IMG/VR virus record: IMGVR_UViG_2695420632_000003 | Location: 1-20,169 of that record | Source of the DNA: a virus | Taxonomy: Duplodnaviria; Heunggongvirae; Uroviricota; Caudoviricetes | Length of the DNA stretch: 20,169 nucleotides | Reading direction: 5' to 3' (one strand) | Shown here: piece by piece, positions 4,219 to 12,228 of the stretch | Numbering within the stretch: the first letter of the stretch is position 1 | Layout: the number at the start of each line of letters is the position of its first letter | Made by a program: the position numbers and the translations under genes | Notes under the pieces: generated by a model | What the model was told of the DNA's origin: nothing | What the model saw: only the letters and a program-made list of their open reading frames with translations | The model's database searches: none

Positions 4219-4574
4219 GCGAGATTAATTATCAGGAAGGGCATGAAAAGGCAGGGCAGGCAAAACCAGTGGCATGGCGATATCGCTACGTGAAAAAAGG
4301 CGTTACAGACTTTCAGGGGAAGCAGTGGGTTGGTGACTGGAAATATGTACCGACAAAAGAGGATTGCAACGACAGACCGAACTATGAAATTCAGGCGTTA
4401 TTCACTGCCCCGCCTGTGCCACTGACACCAGAAGGATTGATTAAAGCAGTGCGTTTCTATGAACAGGTAAAGCGTGAGAATCCGCCAGTCGAAACCGGAG
4501 CATGGAAAGACGCTGTTGACTGGGTGCTCAAAGAGGCTTGCCAGTCTGTAAACATTGGCATCAAAGGAGAGTGA
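4215..4574 (+). CDS. Hypothetical phage protein
   Basis: 119-aa ORF in the coupled gene chain; ends ...GIKGE followed by the repeated junction AAAGGAGAGTGA. Confidence 0.5.
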   Translation: MSEINYQEGHEKAGQAKPVAWRYRYVKKGVTDFQGKQWVGDWKYVPTKEDCNDRPNYEIQALFTAPPVPLTPEGLIKAVRFYEQVKRENPPVETGAWKDAVDWVLKEACQSVNIGIKGE

Positions 4575-4576
4575 GA

Positions 4577-5068
4577 ATGCAAATTTCACCGGTTACTCTT
4601 CGTGTTGCGAAGGCGTTTATATCCAGACATCACCGACACAATAAACCCCCGGTGGGGCATAAATTCAGCATTGGTCTGAGAAATGATGCCGGAGAATTGA
4701 TAGGTGTGGCGACAGCCGGTAGACCTGTTGCACGACATTTGGACGATGGATTAACGCTTGAAGTAAATCGCACATGTACCACAGGAGAACGCAACGCTAA
4801 CAGCGCGCTTTATGGTGCTGTCTGGCGGGCAGCAAAGGCTATGGGTTATCAACGTTGTATTACGTACACCCAGGCAGATGAATCAGGAGCATCTCTCCGC
4901 GCAGCTGGTTTTGTTCGTGTGAAAGAGCTTCCTCCAAGAAAAAGCTGGGCGGAATCAAGCGTCGCCCTGCGGAGTAAACGCGATCCGGTCGGAAACGGTG
5001 GTGTTCCTCGTGTGCTCTGGGAAATCAGGAGAATGAGTACCACTGGCATTCGCATCAAAGGAGAGTGA
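4577..5068 (+). CDS. Hypothetical phage protein; possible acyltransferase-like fold (weak inference)
   Basis: ATG 4577 with AAAGGAGAG SD (ORF track frame extends to 4538). 163 aa; bracketed by identical 17-bp junction sequences (4558-4574 and 5052-5068). Fold assignment is only an impression from the sequence pattern and is not supported by a canonical GNAT motif. Confidence 0.5.
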   Translation: MQISPVTLRVAKAFISRHHRHNKPPVGHKFSIGLRNDAGELIGVATAGRPVARHLDDGLTLEVNRTCTTGERNANSALYGAVWRAAKAMGYQRCITYTQADESGASLRAAGFVRVKELPPRKSWAESSVALRSKRDPVGNGGVPRVLWEIRRMSTTGIRIKGE

Positions 5069-5343: not shown

Positions 5344-6246
5344 ATGACCACTATTACCAAAGAACGTATTGAATTGTTCATTAAAAATCCGCTTGAAAAC
5401 GGGCTTACCCGTGGTGAACAAATGGAACTGGCACGGATTGCGCTGGCATCGCTGGAAGCAGATCCAGTTAAACGAGTTAACTCAGATCAGATGCGCCGAG
5501 TCTGCTTAGAAGCTAATCGCCATTTAGATAAATATGACGCGATGGCGAAAGAGGTAAATAAGTTGCTTGGACGCATCGCCCCGCCAGCGCCGGTAGTGCC
5601 GGAAGAAGCAACTCCGGAAAACGTAGAAATGCTCTCTGGCTATGTTTCCACGTACAAATTAACCGATAGCGAGCGCGATATTGCTGCCGAAATATGGAAC
5701 GCCTGCCGCACCGCCATGCTTCAGTCCGGAAACTTTCGGGAAAGCAAGAATTCGTCAACCAATAATTTTCGGGAAATCCCGGAAGCGTCAACCAGCTCTC
5801 CGGTAACTCCGGCTCTTCTGCCTGGTGGTTTCACCATTGAGGAGGCGAAGGAATTACATGAAGACCTGGTACGCAGCCACATAAGCAAGGCCTTAAGTGG
5901 CGAAAAGATGAAAAAGAAAGATCGCGATGCTGATTTGCGCTGGATTCATGGCGTTATAGTTCAGGCAGCGTGGTTTGTAAAAGCATCACTGGAGCAGAAT
6001 GCACTATCGGGCAACTCTCCGGCAACTCCGGATGGTTGGATAAGCTGTAGTGAGCGAATGCCGAATACCAAAACAGCCGTTCTTGTTGCCGTGGAGTTTG
6101 ACAGGAAAGGTGACTGGCGAATGAAATGGGCTACTTACATCCCCGGGCATCCTGACGCTAATGATGGGTGGATAATTCCTGGTGCGTCGTGGAAACCGTC
6201 ACACTGGATGCCGCTACCAGAACCGCCGCAGGAGGTGAATCAATGA
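5344..6246 (+). CDS. Phage protein with C-terminal DUF551-like domain
   Basis: 300-aa ORF; C-terminus ...DGWIIPGASWKPSHWMPLPEPP matches my recollection of the DUF551 signature (W...HWMPLPEPP); Pro-rich linker in the middle. Confidence 0.55.
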   Translation: MTTITKERIELFIKNPLENGLTRGEQMELARIALASLEADPVKRVNSDQMRRVCLEANRHLDKYDAMAKEVNKLLGRIAPPAPVVPEEATPENVEMLSGYVSTYKLTDSERDIAAEIWNACRTAMLQSGNFRESKNSSTNNFREIPEASTSSPVTPALLPGGFTIEEAKELHEDLVRSHISKALSGEKMKKKDRDADLRWIHGVIVQAAWFVKASLEQNALSGNSPATPDGWISCSERMPNTKTAVLVAVEFDRKGDWRMKWATYIPGHPDANDGWIIPGASWKPSHWMPLPEPPQEVNQ

Positions 6247-6326
6247 GCTGGCCTGAAGCATTAACAACGGTAGGAATTGCGATGGCGGTGGCGCTGGTGG
6301 TGTATTCGATTTGCCGCTGGGGATAA
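6243..6326 (+). CDS. Small hydrophobic peptide (27 aa, single predicted TM)
   Basis: ATG overlaps the upstream stop (ATGA) and is preceded by a near-perfect SD AGGAGGTGA; translation MSWPEALTTVGIAMAVALVVYSICRWG. Confidence 0.35.
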   Translation: MSWPEALTTVGIAMAVALVVYSICRWG

Positions 6327-6537
6327 AAACGGTTTGCGGGAAAAGGAGAGTTAAGTAGAATTGCAGCGGGTGCTTGAGGCTATCTGTCTCAGGCATGAAC
6401 ACCAAAAGGCAGATAGAGAAAAGCCCCAGTTAACATTACGCGTCCGGCAAGACGCTTAACATTAATCTGAGGCCATATCTATGCTCTACACACGTAGGTT
6501 AGCCTCTTACGTGCCGAAAGGCAAGGAGAAGCAGGCT

Positions 6538-6693
6538 ATGAAGCAGCAAAAGGCGATGCTAATCGCCCTGATCGTCATCTGTTTAACCGTCATTGTGACG
6601 GCACTGGTAACGAGGAAAGACCTCTGCGAGGTACGAATCCGAACCGGCCAGACGGAGGTCGCTGTCTTCACAGCTTACGAACCTGAGGAGTAA
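6538..6693 (+). CDS. hok: Hok/Gef family type I toxin (HokD/RelF-like, 51 aa)
   Basis: Translation MKQQKAMLIALIVICLTVIVTALVTRKDLCEVRIRTGQTEVAVFTAYEPEE is a Hok-family membrane toxin as I recall it; SD AAGGAGA upstream; an in-frame upstream extension (6481) occupies the mok-like position; intrinsic terminator follows. Confidence 0.85.
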   Translation: MKQQKAMLIALIVICLTVIVTALVTRKDLCEVRIRTGQTEVAVFTAYEPEE

Positions 6694-6761
6694 GAGACCA
6701 GGCGGGGGAGAATCCCTCGCCACCTCTGATGTGTCAGGCATCCTCAACGCACCCGCACTTA

Positions 6762-6787
6762 ACCCGCTTCGGCGGGTTTTGTTTTTT
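6762..6787 (+). terminator. Rho-independent terminator downstream of hok
   Basis: ACCCGC-TTCG-GCGGGT hairpin (UUCG tetraloop) followed by TTTGTTTTTT. Confidence 0.6.
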
Positions 6788-6859
6788 CCTAGCATTCTGG
6801 TTTACAATTCGCACACCAGCCTGAACAACTGGCACCTGCTGCGCCAGCAGAGACAACCG

Positions 6860-7138
6860 ATGGCGCACGATACCAAATTACACAATTCTGATGATTCTGC
6901 CGTCTTTGCCAGCAGGCACGGGCGGCGTTCCCGCACTTTCAAATCTGACTGGTTCCAGCATCCCCCATGCACTGAAGAACAGGCCGAGTGGCTAATTCAG
7001 TGCTACCGCAGACACGGATACGAGATTAAGAAAGCCCTCAGCCTCGATTATCGTCACTGGATAATCTCCGTCAGGCTTCCTTACTCCGAACGCCCACCGC
7101 GTCCGTCCCGCACATTCCAGCAACGCATCTGGAGGTAA
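6860..7138 (+). CDS. Hypothetical protein in the position of rem (between hok and the DUF968 gene)
   Basis: Start placed at ATG 6860, downstream of the hok terminator and a TACAAT -10-like element (6802-6807); the ORF track extension to 6731 would run through the terminator. Stop is 1 nt before the next gene start. Confidence 0.4.
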   Translation: MAHDTKLHNSDDSAVFASRHGRRSRTFKSDWFQHPPCTEEQAEWLIQCYRRHGYEIKKALSLDYRHWIISVRLPYSERPPRPSRTFQQRIWR

Positions 7139-8195: not shown

Positions 8196-8576
8196 ATGAC
8201 TGAACGCATAGAATTTGTTTTGCCTTACCCGCCAACGGTGAACACTTACTGGCGACGCCGTGGCAGCACATATTTTATCTCGGAGGAGGGAAAGCGTTAT
8301 CGCCGGGCTGTGGCGCTTATTGTTCGCCAGCAGCGGCTGAAATTAAGCCTGTCCGGAAGGCTGGCGATAAAGGTGATTGCAGAGCCACCGGATAAGCGTC
8401 GTCGCGACCTGGACAATATCCTGAAAGCACCGCTGGATGCGCTGACGCATGCGGGAGTGTTAATGGACGATGAGCAGTTTGATGAAATCAATATCGTTCG
8501 TGGTCAGCCAGTATCTGGTGGACGTATGGGGGTGAAGATTTACCCCATAATGCATGAAGAGCAGGTCAAAAAATGA
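8196..8576 (+). CDS. rusA: RusA-family Holliday junction resolvase
   Basis: Translation contains DKRRRDLDNILKAPLDALTHAGVLMDDEQ, matching the RusA catalytic region (DxRRRDLDN); typical nin-region position just upstream of Q. Confidence 0.85.
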   Translation: MTERIEFVLPYPPTVNTYWRRRGSTYFISEEGKRYRRAVALIVRQQRLKLSLSGRLAIKVIAEPPDKRRRDLDNILKAPLDALTHAGVLMDDEQFDEINIVRGQPVSGGRMGVKIYPIMHEEQVKK

Positions 8577-9394
8577 AACTGGAAGATTTACCGAAATACT
8601 ACTCCCCAAAATCCCCTGGCCTGACCGATGCATCGGCCTCAACGTCAAAAGATGCGCTGAGTATCACTGATGTGATGGCCGCGCAGGGCATGACACAGAA
8701 TCGGGCTGAGATGGGGTTTTCTGCGTTCCTGGGGAAAATGGGCATCAGTATGAATGACAGGGCGCGGGCAACAGAATTACTGGCAGATTATGCACTCAGT
8801 CGGTGCGATCGTGTGGCGGCGTTGAGAAAACTTCCGGCAGAAATAAAACCGGTAGTGATGCGCATTATGGCTTCGTATGCGTTTGAAGATTATGCCCGTA
8901 GCGCGGCGAGCAAAAAACAGTGCCCCTGCTGTCACGGAAAAAAATTTATTGAAAGCGAGGTTTTTACAAACAAGATCCAGTATCCGGATGGTAAGCCACC
9001 AGTGTGGGCAAAGTGCACAAAAGGCGTGTATCCGTCTTACTGGGAAGAATGGAAAAAAGTCAGGGAGGTGGTAAAAGTTGCCTGTCCGGAGTGTGGCGGA
9101 AAGGGTGAGGTTTCCACCGCCTGTAAGGATTGCCGTGGGCGTGGTGTCGCCATTCATCGTGAAGAGTCGGTAAAACGTGGTATGCCTGTTATCAGAGATT
9201 GCCAGCGTTGTGGTGGTCGTGGCTGTGAAAGGCTGCCATCAACGGAGGCATTTAATGCCATATGCAAAGTGACGAGTGCTATCACGCTTGATACGTGGAA
9301 AAAATCAGTGAAACGCTTTTACGATACGTTGGTGGTTCGGTTTGACATTGAAGAGGCATGGGCGGAGCGGCAGTTAAAGAGGGTAACGCGATAG
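8573..9394 (+). CDS. Late-gene antiterminator Q-like protein with four CxxCxGxG zinc-finger-like repeats
   Basis: Position between rusA and a promoter/terminator pair; start overlaps the rusA stop (ATGA); repeats CPCCHGKK, CPECGGKG, CKDCRGRG, CQRCGGRG. Functional call is mainly by synteny. Confidence 0.6.
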   Translation: MKLEDLPKYYSPKSPGLTDASASTSKDALSITDVMAAQGMTQNRAEMGFSAFLGKMGISMNDRARATELLADYALSRCDRVAALRKLPAEIKPVVMRIMASYAFEDYARSAASKKQCPCCHGKKFIESEVFTNKIQYPDGKPPVWAKCTKGVYPSYWEEWKKVREVVKVACPECGGKGEVSTACKDCRGRGVAIHREESVKRGMPVIRDCQRCGGRGCERLPSTEAFNAICKVTSAITLDTWKKSVKRFYDTLVVRFDIEEAWAERQLKRVTR

Positions 9395-11067: not shown

Positions 11068-11143
11068 GGCCCTTTAGCTCAGTGGTGAGAGCGAGCGACT
11101 CATAATCGCCAGGTCGCTGGTTCAAATCCAGCAAGGGCCACCA
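11068..11143 (+). tRNA. ileZ: tRNA with CAT anticodon, ileX/ileZ-like (tRNA-Ile2, lysidine type) rather than tRNA-Met
   Basis: 76 nt, cloverleaf folded by hand: acceptor GGCCCTT/AAGGGCC, anticodon loop CTCATAA, T-loop TTCAAAT, encoded CCA; close to E. coli ileX as I recall it. Confidence 0.8.
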
Positions 11144-11150
11144 TCACATA

Positions 11151-11227
11151 CCGCCATTAGCTCATCGGGATAGAGCGCCAGCCTTCGAAGCTGGCTGCGC
11201 GGGGTTCAAGTCCCCGATGGCGGTCCA
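11151..11227 (+). tRNA. argN: tRNA-Arg (anticodon TCG)
   Basis: 77 nt; acceptor CCGCCAT/ATGGCGG, D-stem GCTC/GAGC, anticodon loop CTTCGAA, T-arm CGGGG-TTCAAGT-CCCCG, encoded CCA. Confidence 0.75.
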
Positions 11228-11240
11228 TTATCTGCATCAT

Positions 11241-11317
11241 GCGTTGTTAGCTCAGCCGGACAGAGCAATTGCCTTCTAAGCAATCGGTCACTGGTTCGAA
11301 TCCAGTACAGCGCGCCA
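11241..11317 (+). tRNA. argO: tRNA-Arg (anticodon TCT, decodes AGA/AGG)
   Basis: 77 nt; acceptor GCGTTGT/ACAGCGC, anticodon loop CTTCTAA, T-arm ACTGG-TTCGAAT-CCAGT, encoded CCA. Confidence 0.8.
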
Positions 11318-11781: not shown

Positions 11782-12172
11782 ATACATATCTGGATTATCA
11801 CCGGTTACGGTAAAAAGTGATTGCTTACTGTTTTTGTGAATGGCATTGCAGCAGCCGGATAATGTCAGTGCTGGCTGACGGTGTGCTGGTGGCGGGTGTG
11901 GTGGTTGCTGCTTTCCCGTTGCTGAAAAAGAAAACGCCAGACTGTTAGCCGGGTATCAGTTAGCGGGAGAAATTTTTAAATACTTCACAATTCAGGCGGT
12001 TGACTGTTGTCTGGTTTGCGGGGAGTTTGTTAAAAGAAACTGGCATGGTGAATCCCCCTGTGCGGAGGGGCAATCAGCGAGTAGGTATATGGGATAATCG
12101 CGGATTCAGGTGCTGGTACTGAATTCACCGGGAGGCACCCGGCACCATGCAATGGCACATAGCGCCACTCTC

Positions 12173-12200
12173 CAGCCCCTCTCCGGAGGGGCTGTTTATA
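12173..12200 (+). terminator. Strong intrinsic terminator (+ strand) inside the cargo segment
   Basis: 9-bp GC-rich stem CAGCCCCTC / GAGGGGCTG with UCCG tetraloop, followed by TTTATATTGATTTT. Confidence 0.6.
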
Positions 12201-12228
12201 TTGATTTTGTCAGATGTGAGTAAACTCC

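Follow-up and report, generated by a model that had tools for sequence, protein, structure and literature searches.

A hok/mok/sok toxin-antitoxin cassette and a separate, putative small membrane peptide gene in the early operon of a lambdoid prophage

The locus described here raises the question of whether a hok-like toxin gene on a phage genome is still accompanied by all parts of a toxin-antitoxin system of type I, including a Sok antisense RNA, and whether the hydrophobic 27-codon reading frame just upstream is a gene in its own right. The window analysed is the whole of a 20,169-nucleotide stretch of DNA (positions 1 to 20,169 of IMG/VR virus record IMGVR_UViG_2695420632_000003, Caudoviricetes). 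The rightward early operon of a lambdoid (lambda-like) E. coli prophage very probably carries, at positions 6334-6790, an intact hok/mok/sok cassette that belongs to the hokD/hokW subtype. The order and orientation of the genes (cro, replication genes, DUF551, hokD, DUF968, rusA, Q) place the cassette within this operon, where it lies upstream of Q and reads in the operon's direction. The presence, integrity and conservation of every cassette element are established at the level of sequence and prediction; this part of the locus is already known, being a further intact copy, in a prophage, of a system that has been characterised, and brings no change for the field. The upstream frame, on the sequence evidence, is a real and widespread gene that is separate from hok/sok and has been missed by standard annotation.

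The toxin gene and its in-frame extension were both recognised by the sequence-only reading, and database comparison bears out the two assignments. The hok coding sequence (6538-6693, plus strand, 51 aa) matches Pfam HOK_GEF (PF01848) at E=1.2e-23 (82.9 bits, cut-off 22) and PHROG 251 ("MokW-like host killing") at 2.8e-33, and is preceded by a Shine-Dalgarno sequence (AAGGAG, 6523-6528). The comparison with hokD/relF that had been suggested shows a product 100% identical to E. coli K-12 HokD and DNA that is near-identical from the hok Shine-Dalgarno sequence to the terminator; loci identical to that of the window are called "hokD" by PGAP. The frame at the mok position opens with an ATG at 6481 and shares the hok stop codon, giving a predicted 70-aa in-frame N-terminal extension of hok (6481-6693, plus strand) with the geometry of the annotated mokW of phage 933W and mokC of K-12, and its product is 91% identical to MokW. 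A GAGG motif at 6469-6472 on the plus strand represents the mok Shine-Dalgarno sequence, the same motif being named as such in R1 (PMC9841398).

The hok mRNA is predicted to extend over ~420 nt (6368-6787, plus strand) from an inferred start to the T-run of the terminator, and its full-length fold is unusually stable (-169.6 kcal/mol, z=-7.3). A consensus promoter scan detected neither the hok nor the Sok promoter, both of which fall below its threshold, and the plus-strand promoter that it proposed at 6456-6485 is implausible; promoters were instead placed by homology and published mutagenesis. The putative hok promoter read from the sequence (6334-6361, plus strand) consists of a -35 box TTGCGG (6334-6339), a 16-nt spacer and a -10 box TAGAAT (6356-6361), the latter aligning with the TATAAT of K-12 hokC and preceding position 1 of the Rfam leader model by 7 nt. 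That model, RF01794, matches the plus strand at 6368-6543 with 117.1 bits (gathering score 59) and is covered in full (1-157). An Rfam scan had been proposed as a check on the locus, and the 117-bit match does recover the hok leader, though the "sok" model that finds it is a sense-strand one. Taking this match for the antisense RNA itself was rejected, since it lies on the plus strand and its consensus ends at the hok Shine-Dalgarno sequence and AUG: RF01794 models the hok leader despite its name. Since the match is to the hok sense strand, automated annotation of "sok" with RF01794 would give the antitoxin both the wrong strand and the wrong length.

Within the leader, the tac element (6368-6379, plus strand) forms the 5' end of the mRNA and is followed by a hairpin (6380-6416, plus strand; fold and Rfam) with a 10-bp stem (6380-6389 with 6407-6416). 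This stem contains the inverted repeat CTATCTG...CAGATAG that had been noticed at ~6381-6416, its arms now lying at 6380-6386 and 6410-6416. The ucb (anti-Shine-Dalgarno) box AAGCCCCAG (6421-6429, plus strand) is predicted to sequester the mok Shine-Dalgarno sequence in the closed form, 6423-6429 pairing with 6467-6473 in the minimum free energy (MFE), centroid and alifold consensus structures. At the other end of the transcript, the fbi element (6742-6754, plus strand) is predicted to pair with tac in a 12-bp helix (6368-6379 with 6742-6754) that appears in both the MFE and centroid folds and is kept in at least 41 of 46 unique loci. The roles of tac are described in PMC9841398: its partner is fbi in the closed form and ucb in the open one. 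When the mRNA was trimmed at its 3' end, the MFE fold retained the closed hairpin and not the open tac/ucb form, and the one source of support for that open form is a stem in the Rfam consensus structure. Covariation support for the leader and tac/fbi helices was negligible across the 46 unique loci, a test left powerless because the homologs are too alike and the few divergent ones misalign. The transcript is closed by an intrinsic terminator (6761-6790, plus strand), and the UUCG-loop hairpin seen in the letters alone reappears in the terminator prediction as a 7-bp stem and loop at 6761-6778 with the T-run directly after it. This is the only terminator predicted between 6150 and 6900, and none is predicted from 6150, where the scanned stretch starts, to 6760.

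An antisense RNA had been expected on the minus strand around 6440-6520, with a promoter that could not be placed confidently, and this expectation proves correct in substance. By homology to sokW, whose misc_RNA coordinates in 933W were transferred to the window, a predicted Sok RNA of ~71 nt runs from about 6489 to 6419 on the minus strand. A single-stranded 5' tail of 15 nt (6489-6475) leads into a long hairpin (6474-6422) that is followed by a U-rich tail, and the RNA is predicted to fold at -29.7 kcal/mol (z=-5.3) into the 5' tail and a terminator hairpin; in 933W, the misc_RNA of sokW and the opening 9 nt of mokW overlap. The Sok promoter (6496-6524, minus strand), assigned by identity to 933W, has a -35 box TTGCCT (6524-6519), a 17-nt spacer and a -10 box TAACCT (6501-6496) that matches TATAAT at only three of six positions. 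A promoter-less sokW mutant (TAGGTTAGCC changed to CCGGCTCGCC) loses antitoxin function, and a 71-nt sokW RNA has been seen by northern blot in Sp5 (PMC8621323). The position altered in that mutant is exactly the -10 box of the window's Sok. A lack of any antisense promoter or Sok-like complementarity would have pointed to a decayed locus; the promoter found here is identical to that of the tested sokW. Among the 46 unique loci, the promoter boxes, tac, ucb, the hok Shine-Dalgarno sequence and fbi are nearly invariant, and variation sits in the Sok 5' tail. This hypervariable tail may act as a specificity code that prevents cross-regulation among the several hok/sok copies that a cell can carry.

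The closest characterised relative is hokW/mokW/sokW of the Stx2 phages 933W and Sp5 (annotated in the 933W record AF125520.1 and characterised by Takada et al. 2021, PMC8621323), which is ~96% identical to the window locus and was demonstrated by experiment in 2021 to work as a toxin-antitoxin system of type I. HokW is toxic and located in the inner membrane, and induction involves a RecA-dependent loss of Sok and a two-fold increase in phage release (PMC8621323). The two loci can be matched up base by base over the stretch that begins with the small ORF and ends with fbi: both belong to lambdoid prophages, the same 27-codon ORF precedes both cassettes, the Sok promoter, Sok hairpin and hok Shine-Dalgarno sequence are identical, and 47 of 51 Hok residues (92%) and 91% of Mok residues are shared. 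The differences comprise the C-terminus of Hok (TAYEPEE in the window rather than VDYESEK), the 3' end and terminator, which diverge after 6770, and six of the 16 nt that cover the Sok 5' tail and the first codons of mok (6474-6487); this last difference may weaken cross-recognition of the two Sok RNAs. The genomic setting also differs, since the window cassette lies in a nin-like region, between the replication genes and Q, whereas that of 933W lies at the far right end of the prophage. More distant relatives share the same layout: R1 hok/sok and K-12 hokC/mokC/sokC have the same tac/fbi, ucb and mok Shine-Dalgarno sequence GAGG, as well as a Sok promoter that lies within mok and is convergent. 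In K-12, mokC extends hokC in frame in the same manner, and its first 9 nt are shared with sokC. At its apex, the Sok hairpin of the window has an additional stem of ~18 nt (6438-6455) which neither hokC nor the Rfam consensus shows, and its Sok is therefore ~71 nt long rather than ~59 nt. HokW, which is 92% identical to the window Hok, is 44% identical to R1 Hok (PMC8621323), and the role of the R1 system is plasmid maintenance, whereas that reported for hokW is assisting phage release.

By analogy, the window copy is inferred to behave as hokW-sokW does. A weak promoter would give rise to a stable hok mRNA of ~420 nt in which tac at the 5' end pairs with fbi at the 3' end and ucb covers the mok Shine-Dalgarno sequence, so that the full-length RNA would not be translated. 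Slow 3' trimming would remove fbi, allow tac to pair with ucb and expose the mok Shine-Dalgarno sequence, and translation of mok would be coupled to that of Hok, the 51-aa toxin predicted to act at the inner membrane. The convergent promoter within mok would meanwhile produce the unstable, ~71-nt Sok RNA, whose 5' tail and hairpin show perfect complementarity to the Shine-Dalgarno and start region of mok; this would block mok translation and mark the duplex for RNase III, and Hok would be made once Sok synthesis stops. The regulatory model as such is set out in PMC9841398. Read-through of the early operon from the DUF551 side would collide with the convergent Sok promoter, and we infer that such transcriptional interference contributes to Sok loss on induction. 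It would offer a simple and testable explanation for the RecA-dependent loss of SokW on induction, for which the 2021 study settles on no cause.

The partner of the small ORF is the DUF551-domain gene immediately upstream (5344-6246, plus strand, 300 aa; Pfam E=5.7e-21 over residues 231-296), which lies outside hok/sok. The small ORF itself, MSWPEALTTVGIAMAVALVVYSICRWG (6243-6326, plus strand), has 27 codons and a predicted product consisting of a single-helix membrane peptide, and its ATG overlaps the DUF551 TGA stop codon as ATGA (6243-6246). Inside the last codons of the DUF551 gene lies the Shine-Dalgarno sequence AGGAGGTG (6230-6237, plus strand), 5 nt upstream of the ATG, with its GGAGG core (6231-6235) 7 nt away. 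The near-perfect ribosome-binding site and the coupling to DUF551 that had been reported for this peptide are thus both present as described, and its placement outside the canonical hok layout agrees with the occurrence of the module with and without hok. Copies were collected by degenerate DNA-pattern scans and tblastn, and the window copy and 135 further copies match a pattern (M-[STN]-W-P-[ED]-A ... Y-S-x-C-R-W-G) accompanied by the ATGA overlap and a Shine-Dalgarno sequence in the upstream gene, a motif conserved in most of the 135 copies, including those behind different upstream genes. In the pattern scan of viral contigs the ORF was exactly 27 codons long in 118 of 119 cases; the same loose pattern in unrelated genomes, used as a control, returned chance ORFs of scattered length. 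A genome-wide pattern scan gave 35 matches, most of them arising by chance in high-GC genomes, and was kept as a negative control. Two tiny contigs in the pattern scan that are labelled "Xanthomonas" and "Acinetobacter" look like E. coli contamination.

The ORF is present in 32% of complete E. coli genomes, in up to eight copies each, and copies also occur on non-mobilizable plasmids of ~90-105 kb. The ORF's length, its single hydrophobic helix, its one C-terminal basic residue and its omission by standard gene callers recall the small membrane proteins (16-50 aa) that phages and enterobacteria encode, but the ORF shows no detectable sequence relationship to the catalogued families, and what defines it is the ATGA coupling to early genes of the DUF551/Ea type. 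A literature search with the peptide sequence returned nothing. A possible "Rosetta stone" fusion of DUF551 and the peptide, suggested by a 90% cluster with 121-aa Shigella proteins, was rejected because those proteins end in PEPPQEVNQ without the peptide, and the clustering is thus an artefact of overlapping partial calls.

Three other explanations bear on the locus, one for the cassette and two for the small ORF. The cassette could be a non-functional evolutionary remnant like K-12 hokD or the chromosomal hok loci disrupted by IS elements, with Hok never made and Sok irrelevant. K-12 chromosomal hok loci reportedly fail to bring about post-segregational killing, so activity should not be assumed from family membership alone; in addition, K-12 hokD is a truncated copy and both the hok and Sok promoters of the window are weak by consensus. 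This explanation is nevertheless very improbable, given that the regulatory elements of the window are all intact with neither an IS nor a truncation, that the cassette elements are strongly conserved over the 46 unique loci, and that hokW-sokW, at ~96% identity, works and has an effect on phage release. The homology of K-12 hokD (relF, Qin prophage) to the window begins only at ~6524, and it is without the hok promoter, tac, ucb, mok start and sok gene because relBE sequence abuts there. The comparison makes clear that the window locus, rather than being decayed, is best read as the full-length form of which K-12 hokD is the truncated remnant. That the 27-aa peptide is instead a working part of the hok system, such as a second toxin or a modulator of Hok, is the least probable of the three. 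Of 123 scorable loci, 53 do have a hok gene no more than 900 nt downstream, at one of two fixed spacings, both products are small peptides of inner-membrane type, and the published pBAD18-hokW-sokW clone starts at the small-ORF ATG (primer YO-432). Yet the remaining 70 of the 123 loci have no hok nearby and carry xis/int, other toxin-antitoxin genes or unrelated ORFs in its place, copies in virulent Avunavirus phages and a Punavirus (P1-type) phage all lack an adjacent hok, and most hok loci (K-12 hokA/B/C/E, R1) lack the small ORF. The ORF also ends upstream of the hok promoter and hence is not on the hok mRNA, and an arabinose-induced clone containing it, without its Shine-Dalgarno sequence, was non-toxic while Sok was present (PMC8621323). 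The small ORF is an independent module that is found both with and without hok.

The more serious competitor, still unlikely, holds that the 27-codon frame is not a gene and reflects either a DNA-level element (e.g., a recombination linker at a mosaic boundary or a regulatory site) or an ORF on the antisense strand. Lambdoid phages are mosaic and differing genes abut the conserved block on both sides, third codon positions are only mildly enriched for variable sites, and the ORF goes unrecognised by PGAP and Pfam, with a best NCBIfam match of E=0.23 and PHROG matches of E 0.0035 or weaker. Synonymous changes account for 73 of 164 events in a tree-based count, against 25% expected (p=7e-8), but the wobble-sharing antisense frame, which is mostly open, has the same excess, and counts of synonymous and nonsynonymous changes alone cannot separate these two frames. 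Other observations argue for a gene in the sense frame. The conserved block extends exactly from the Shine-Dalgarno sequence to the stop codon, where identity falls from ~0.9 to 0.39; the length is constant at 27 codons although the stop at codon 28 is not forced by the search pattern; and the ATGA overlap and Shine-Dalgarno sequence are maintained behind at least three unrelated upstream genes. The dN/dS ratio is 0.32 in the sense frame, compared with 0.69 and 2.0 in the other sense frames, all 34 peptide variants remain strongly hydrophobic, and the product of the antisense frame lacks both a conserved start and membrane-like character. Scored in the sense frame, replacements are conservative, and scored in the antisense frame they do worse than random ones. 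What favours the sense frame over the antisense one is thus chiefly the exact position of the block boundaries, with the conservativeness of replacements as a weaker argument. The small ORF is under purifying selection in the sense frame.

The small ORF would accordingly be read as a separate gene on the early transcript, translationally coupled to the gene that precedes it and encoding a single-helix membrane peptide. A broader joint proposal, which we consider somewhat better than evenly balanced, is that it is a translated phage small membrane protein of an uncatalogued family, expressed only upon firing of the early operon, and that the Sok tail serves as a specificity code. In this proposal the Shine-Dalgarno sequence and ORF would form a cassette carried behind DUF551/Ea22/EaA-type early genes of lambdoid, P1-like and Avunavirus phages of Escherichia, Shigella, Salmonella and Klebsiella, and the peptide would act during induction or early infection at the inner membrane. 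The peptide might, for instance, take part in the lysis-lysogeny or exclusion functions that are attributed to the exo-xis/ea region; the small ORF lies in regions of this poorly understood ea/exo-xis type, which influence the lysis-lysogeny behaviour of Stx phages. About one third of complete E. coli genomes carry this putative membrane-peptide gene, which is overlooked by current pipelines and family databases.

The stretch from 6243 to 6791, flagged by the sequence-only reading as a Hok/Gef type I toxin locus, contains a hok/mok/sok cassette that is already known, under the name hokD from annotation and as the hokW-sokW subtype from experiment; the observation is confirmed and its interpretation supported. 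The hok CDS (6538-6693, + strand) encodes 51 aa, matches Pfam HOK_GEF (E=1.2e-23), and specifies a toxin 100% identical to K-12 HokD, bearing out its placement in the Hok family. The in-frame extension proposed for the mok position is also present, running from ATG 6481 to the stop shared with hok (6481-6693, + strand, 70 aa), and its product shares 91% identity with MokW and 72% with MokC. A sequence scan of 6150-6900 recovered the UUCG-loop hairpin described as closing the locus (6761-6778, + strand, followed by a T-run) as the sole terminator-like site. A 701-nt query covering the locus found at least a partial match in 5,009 of 5,426 complete E. coli genomes and a match over at least 80% of its length in 886; the NCBI pipeline names the gene hokD, and amongst phage records the stretch matches many Stx-converting phages. 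The record of phage 933W (AF125520.1), in which hokW and mokW are annotated together with sokW, an antisense RNA of 71 nt overlapping the first 9 nt of mokW, aligns base for base with the window from a small upstream ORF through fbi (the 3' complement of the mRNA 5' element tac). In contrast, alignment to K-12 hokD, a check that had been proposed, demonstrates homology only from ~6524, immediately before the hok SD, and the K-12 copy therefore lacks the promoter, leader, mok start, and sok; by comparison, the window holds the complete form of this subtype.

In the Rfam scan also suggested for this locus, the family RF01794 ('sok') matches 6368-6543 on the + strand with 117 bits (gathering score 59), its first model position corresponding to G6368. 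The consensus closes with the hok SD and AUG, so what is modelled is the leader of the hok mRNA, in the open form with the tac/ucb stem (ucb being the anti-SD box over the mok SD). The 'sok' model therefore reports the hok sense strand rather than the antisense RNA, and reading the hit as Sok is ruled out; an annotation that did so would have the wrong strand and the wrong length, a practical caveat that counts amongst what is new here. Upstream of G6368 by 7 nt lies TAGAAT (6356-6361, + strand), which aligns with the hokC TATAAT, and 16 nt further upstream lies TTGCGG (6334-6339, + strand); these are the putative -10 and -35 of the hok promoter. The inverted repeat noted in the leader is present (CTATCTG at 6380-6386, CAGATAG at 6410-6416) within a 10-bp stem. 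In the predicted fold of the 420-nt RNA 6368-6787 (-169.6 kcal/mol, z=-7.3), the 5' 12 nt (tac) pair with fbi (6742-6754), and ucb (6423-6429) pairs with 6467-6473, spanning the mok SD GAGG, the same form as the closed, untranslatable mRNA described for R1 hok (PMC9841398). RefSeq sometimes places a minus-strand 'hypothetical protein' over the hok 3' UTR, fbi, and terminator (window 6583-6795; 6586-6765 in comparison locus L002), a call that is probably spurious. The hok Tyr47 codon TAC and the following G form a UACG motif (6676-6679), also found in hokW; according to a 2026 preprint, TadA A-to-I editing turns the corresponding Tyr of hokC, hokD, and hokE into Cys.

A Sok-like antisense RNA had been expected on the minus strand around 6440-6520, with its promoter left unplaced, and both can now be located by homology to sokW. 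Coordinates transferred from 933W place the RNA at 6489 to 6419 (- strand), with a predicted fold (-29.7 kcal/mol, z=-5.3) in which a free 5' tail of 15 nt precedes a long hairpin (6474-6422) and a U-rich tail. The promoter (6496-6524, - strand), which fell below detection in a consensus promoter scan, is assigned from homology and a published mutant, with a -35 of TTGCCT (6524-6519), a 17-nt spacer, and a -10 of TAACCT (6501-6496). The primers for the promoter-less sokW mutant convert TAGGTTAGCC to CCGGCTCGCC (Takada et al. 2021, PMC8621323); the mutated element is exactly the -10, which is identical in the window, and the mutant lost antitoxin function, partly regained when sokW was supplied in trans (PMC8621323).

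Across 46 unique homologous regions from the fetched contigs, the fraction of sequences differing from the window per position is close to zero for the hok SD (0.01), Sok -35 (0.02), tac, ucb, and the CDS (0.03 each), fbi (0.05), and Sok -10 (0.08), and rises to 0.29 in the Sok 5' tail and first mok codons (6475-6489), within the hypervariable part of the locus (6474-6493); these homologs are too alike to show any covariation. Relative to 933W, 6 of 16 Sok tail positions differ, versus 0 of 55 in the remaining Sok. A cis-encoded Sok is of necessity complementary to its own mRNA; what variation in the tail would alter is the recognition of other copies. The Sok 5' tail may set specificity amongst hok/sok copies resident in the same cell, and its hypervariability is part of what is new at this locus.

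HokW is toxic and localises to the inner membrane; the lysogen contains both sokW RNA and hokW mRNA, and after mitomycin C treatment sokW RNA is lost quickly in a RecA-dependent manner, and HokW is seen ~1 h before endolysin; deletion of the locus halves phage release (PMC8621323). The cause of sokW RNA removal was left open by the authors (PMC8621323), and the genomic context suggests a possible one. The gene order in close relatives is a cI-like repressor (minus strand), cro, ydaT, replication genes, several small genes, DUF551, and hokD, followed by DUF968, rusA, the Q antiterminator, a DNA methyltransferase, tRNAs, iraM (minus strand), an esterase, holin, and lysozyme. The ORF map of the window matches this order, and the cassette therefore lies inside the rightward early operon, co-oriented and upstream of Q. 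No terminator was predicted from 6150, where the scan starts within the 3' portion of the DUF551 gene, up to the terminator of hok. Upon induction, early transcription would cross the locus head-on into the Sok promoter, and this read-through would decrease Sok synthesis; such interference would account for the RecA-dependent loss of SokW. The hok intrinsic terminator (6761-6790) itself sits between the early promoter and the Q gene (8573-9394), so transcripts from that promoter can reach Q only by reading through it.

Directly upstream of the cassette, the small ORF (6243-6326, + strand, 27 codons) is preceded by AGGAGGTG at 6230-6237, and its start codon lies in an ATGA overlap with the TGA stop of the 300-aa DUF551 gene, in agreement with the translational coupling originally proposed. 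By tblastn, the ORF occurs in 95 phage records at 52-93% identity. Amongst ten diverse loci fetched (lambdoid Stx phages, two Avunavirus phages, and one Punavirus), nine have exactly 27 codons and the ATGA overlap onto the upstream gene, and one (POCJ13) is broken. That gene contains DUF551 in 5 of 8 sampled loci and in the window, and lacks it in ArgO145, 933W (L0139), and the Avunavirus phages. Downstream neighbours vary (hok, xis/int, a different TA pair, or unrelated ORFs), and in 53 of the 123 loci that could be scored hok follows within 900 nt; as first suggested, the peptide is not part of the canonical hok layout, and the small ORF and hok are often neighbours but do not form a unit. 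The ORF stops 8 nt short of the putative hok -35 and is therefore not on the hok mRNA. The disrupted copy in Shigella phage POCJ13 (fetched locus L012, 1501-1581), the only disrupted one in the sample, has a stop at codon 3 following an apparent small deletion, and is overlaid by two annotated minus-strand 'hypothetical proteins'.

A loose DNA pattern fixing only codons 1-6 and 25-26 matched >119 viral contigs, 118 (118/119) with the stop exactly at codon 28. The same pattern had 35 matches in 185,579 species genomes, of which 28 were in unrelated taxa with scattered ORF lengths and non-hydrophobic products, approximately the number expected by chance, and all seven 27-codon matches came from Escherichia or Shigella, or from tiny contigs that are likely contaminants. 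Two such contigs, from Xanthomonas pisi (L142, 431 bp) and Acinetobacter idrijaensis (L160, 369 bp), carry E. coli-type copies with the AGGAGGTGAATCA leader, most likely as contamination. For codons 7-24, outside the pattern constraint, 57 unique sequences gave pS 0.44, pN 0.18, and dN/dS 0.32 in the sense frame, compared with dN/dS of 0.69 and 2.0 in the other sense frames, which both always contain stops; parsimony on a tree counted 73 of 164 events as synonymous against 25% expected (p=7e-8). The antisense frame sharing wobble positions shows the same synonymous excess. However, mean pairwise identity, 0.3-0.5 upstream and 0.67 at the SD, reaches 0.7-0.9 within the ORF and drops to 0.39 right after the stop, so that the conserved block extends exactly from SD to stop. 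Sense-frame replacements score as more conservative (-0.12) than random ones (-0.33), and antisense-frame replacements as less conservative (-0.67) than random ones (-0.18); block boundaries and, less strongly, replacement scores favour the sense frame. A strongly hydrophobic core is retained in all 34 of 34 peptide variants, and the most that can be said of the product is that it would be a membrane peptide with a single helix, translated from the early transcript.

The ORF is present in 1,739 of the 5,426 complete E. coli genomes, in up to 8 copies and with 164 places on plasmids; 180 plasmids carry it, mostly non-mobilizable replicons of ~90-105 kb from Escherichia, Salmonella, and one Klebsiella. 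PGAP leaves it unannotated, Pfam, NCBIfam, and PHROGs yielded no convincing family, none of the papers in the library searched has the peptide sequence, and a few submitters have deposited the peptide as 'putative prophage protein' or 'hypothetical protein'. Conserved and widespread but missing from the catalogues, the 27-aa ORF is a predicted small-protein gene, and it too is part of what is new here. The pBAD18-hokW-sokW clone (PMC8621323, primer YO-432) starts at GAATCAATGACCTGG, the ATG of this ORF (1980-2000 in comparison locus L001), and the ORF without its SD was therefore inside the construct used for hokW-sokW function; PMC8621323 makes no comment on it.

Several other features of the window were observed. 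The DUF551 gene is intact (5344-6246, 300 aa); its annotation in the closest relatives, EC931 and AF39, consists of several pseudogene fragments and a 62-aa remnant (L002, 5195-6097; L170, 5748-6650). Three tRNA genes (11068-11317, + strand) have a CAT anticodon, Arg-TCG, and Arg-TCT, the cluster that Stx-type lambdoid phages typically carry downstream of Q; ARAGORN assigns the CAT tRNA to Met and PGAP calls its homolog tRNA-Ile, the latter consistent with a lysidine-modified ileX-type tRNA. Downstream of this cluster, a match to the STnc100 sRNA family (12014-12203, + strand; 132 bits, gathering score 47) adjoins an iraM-like gene on the opposite strand. Finally, a 176-aa ORF (4538-5068, + strand) has a weak, sub-threshold Pfam match to the Mom family (E=8.6e-5, 22.7 bits versus a cut-off of 27.1).
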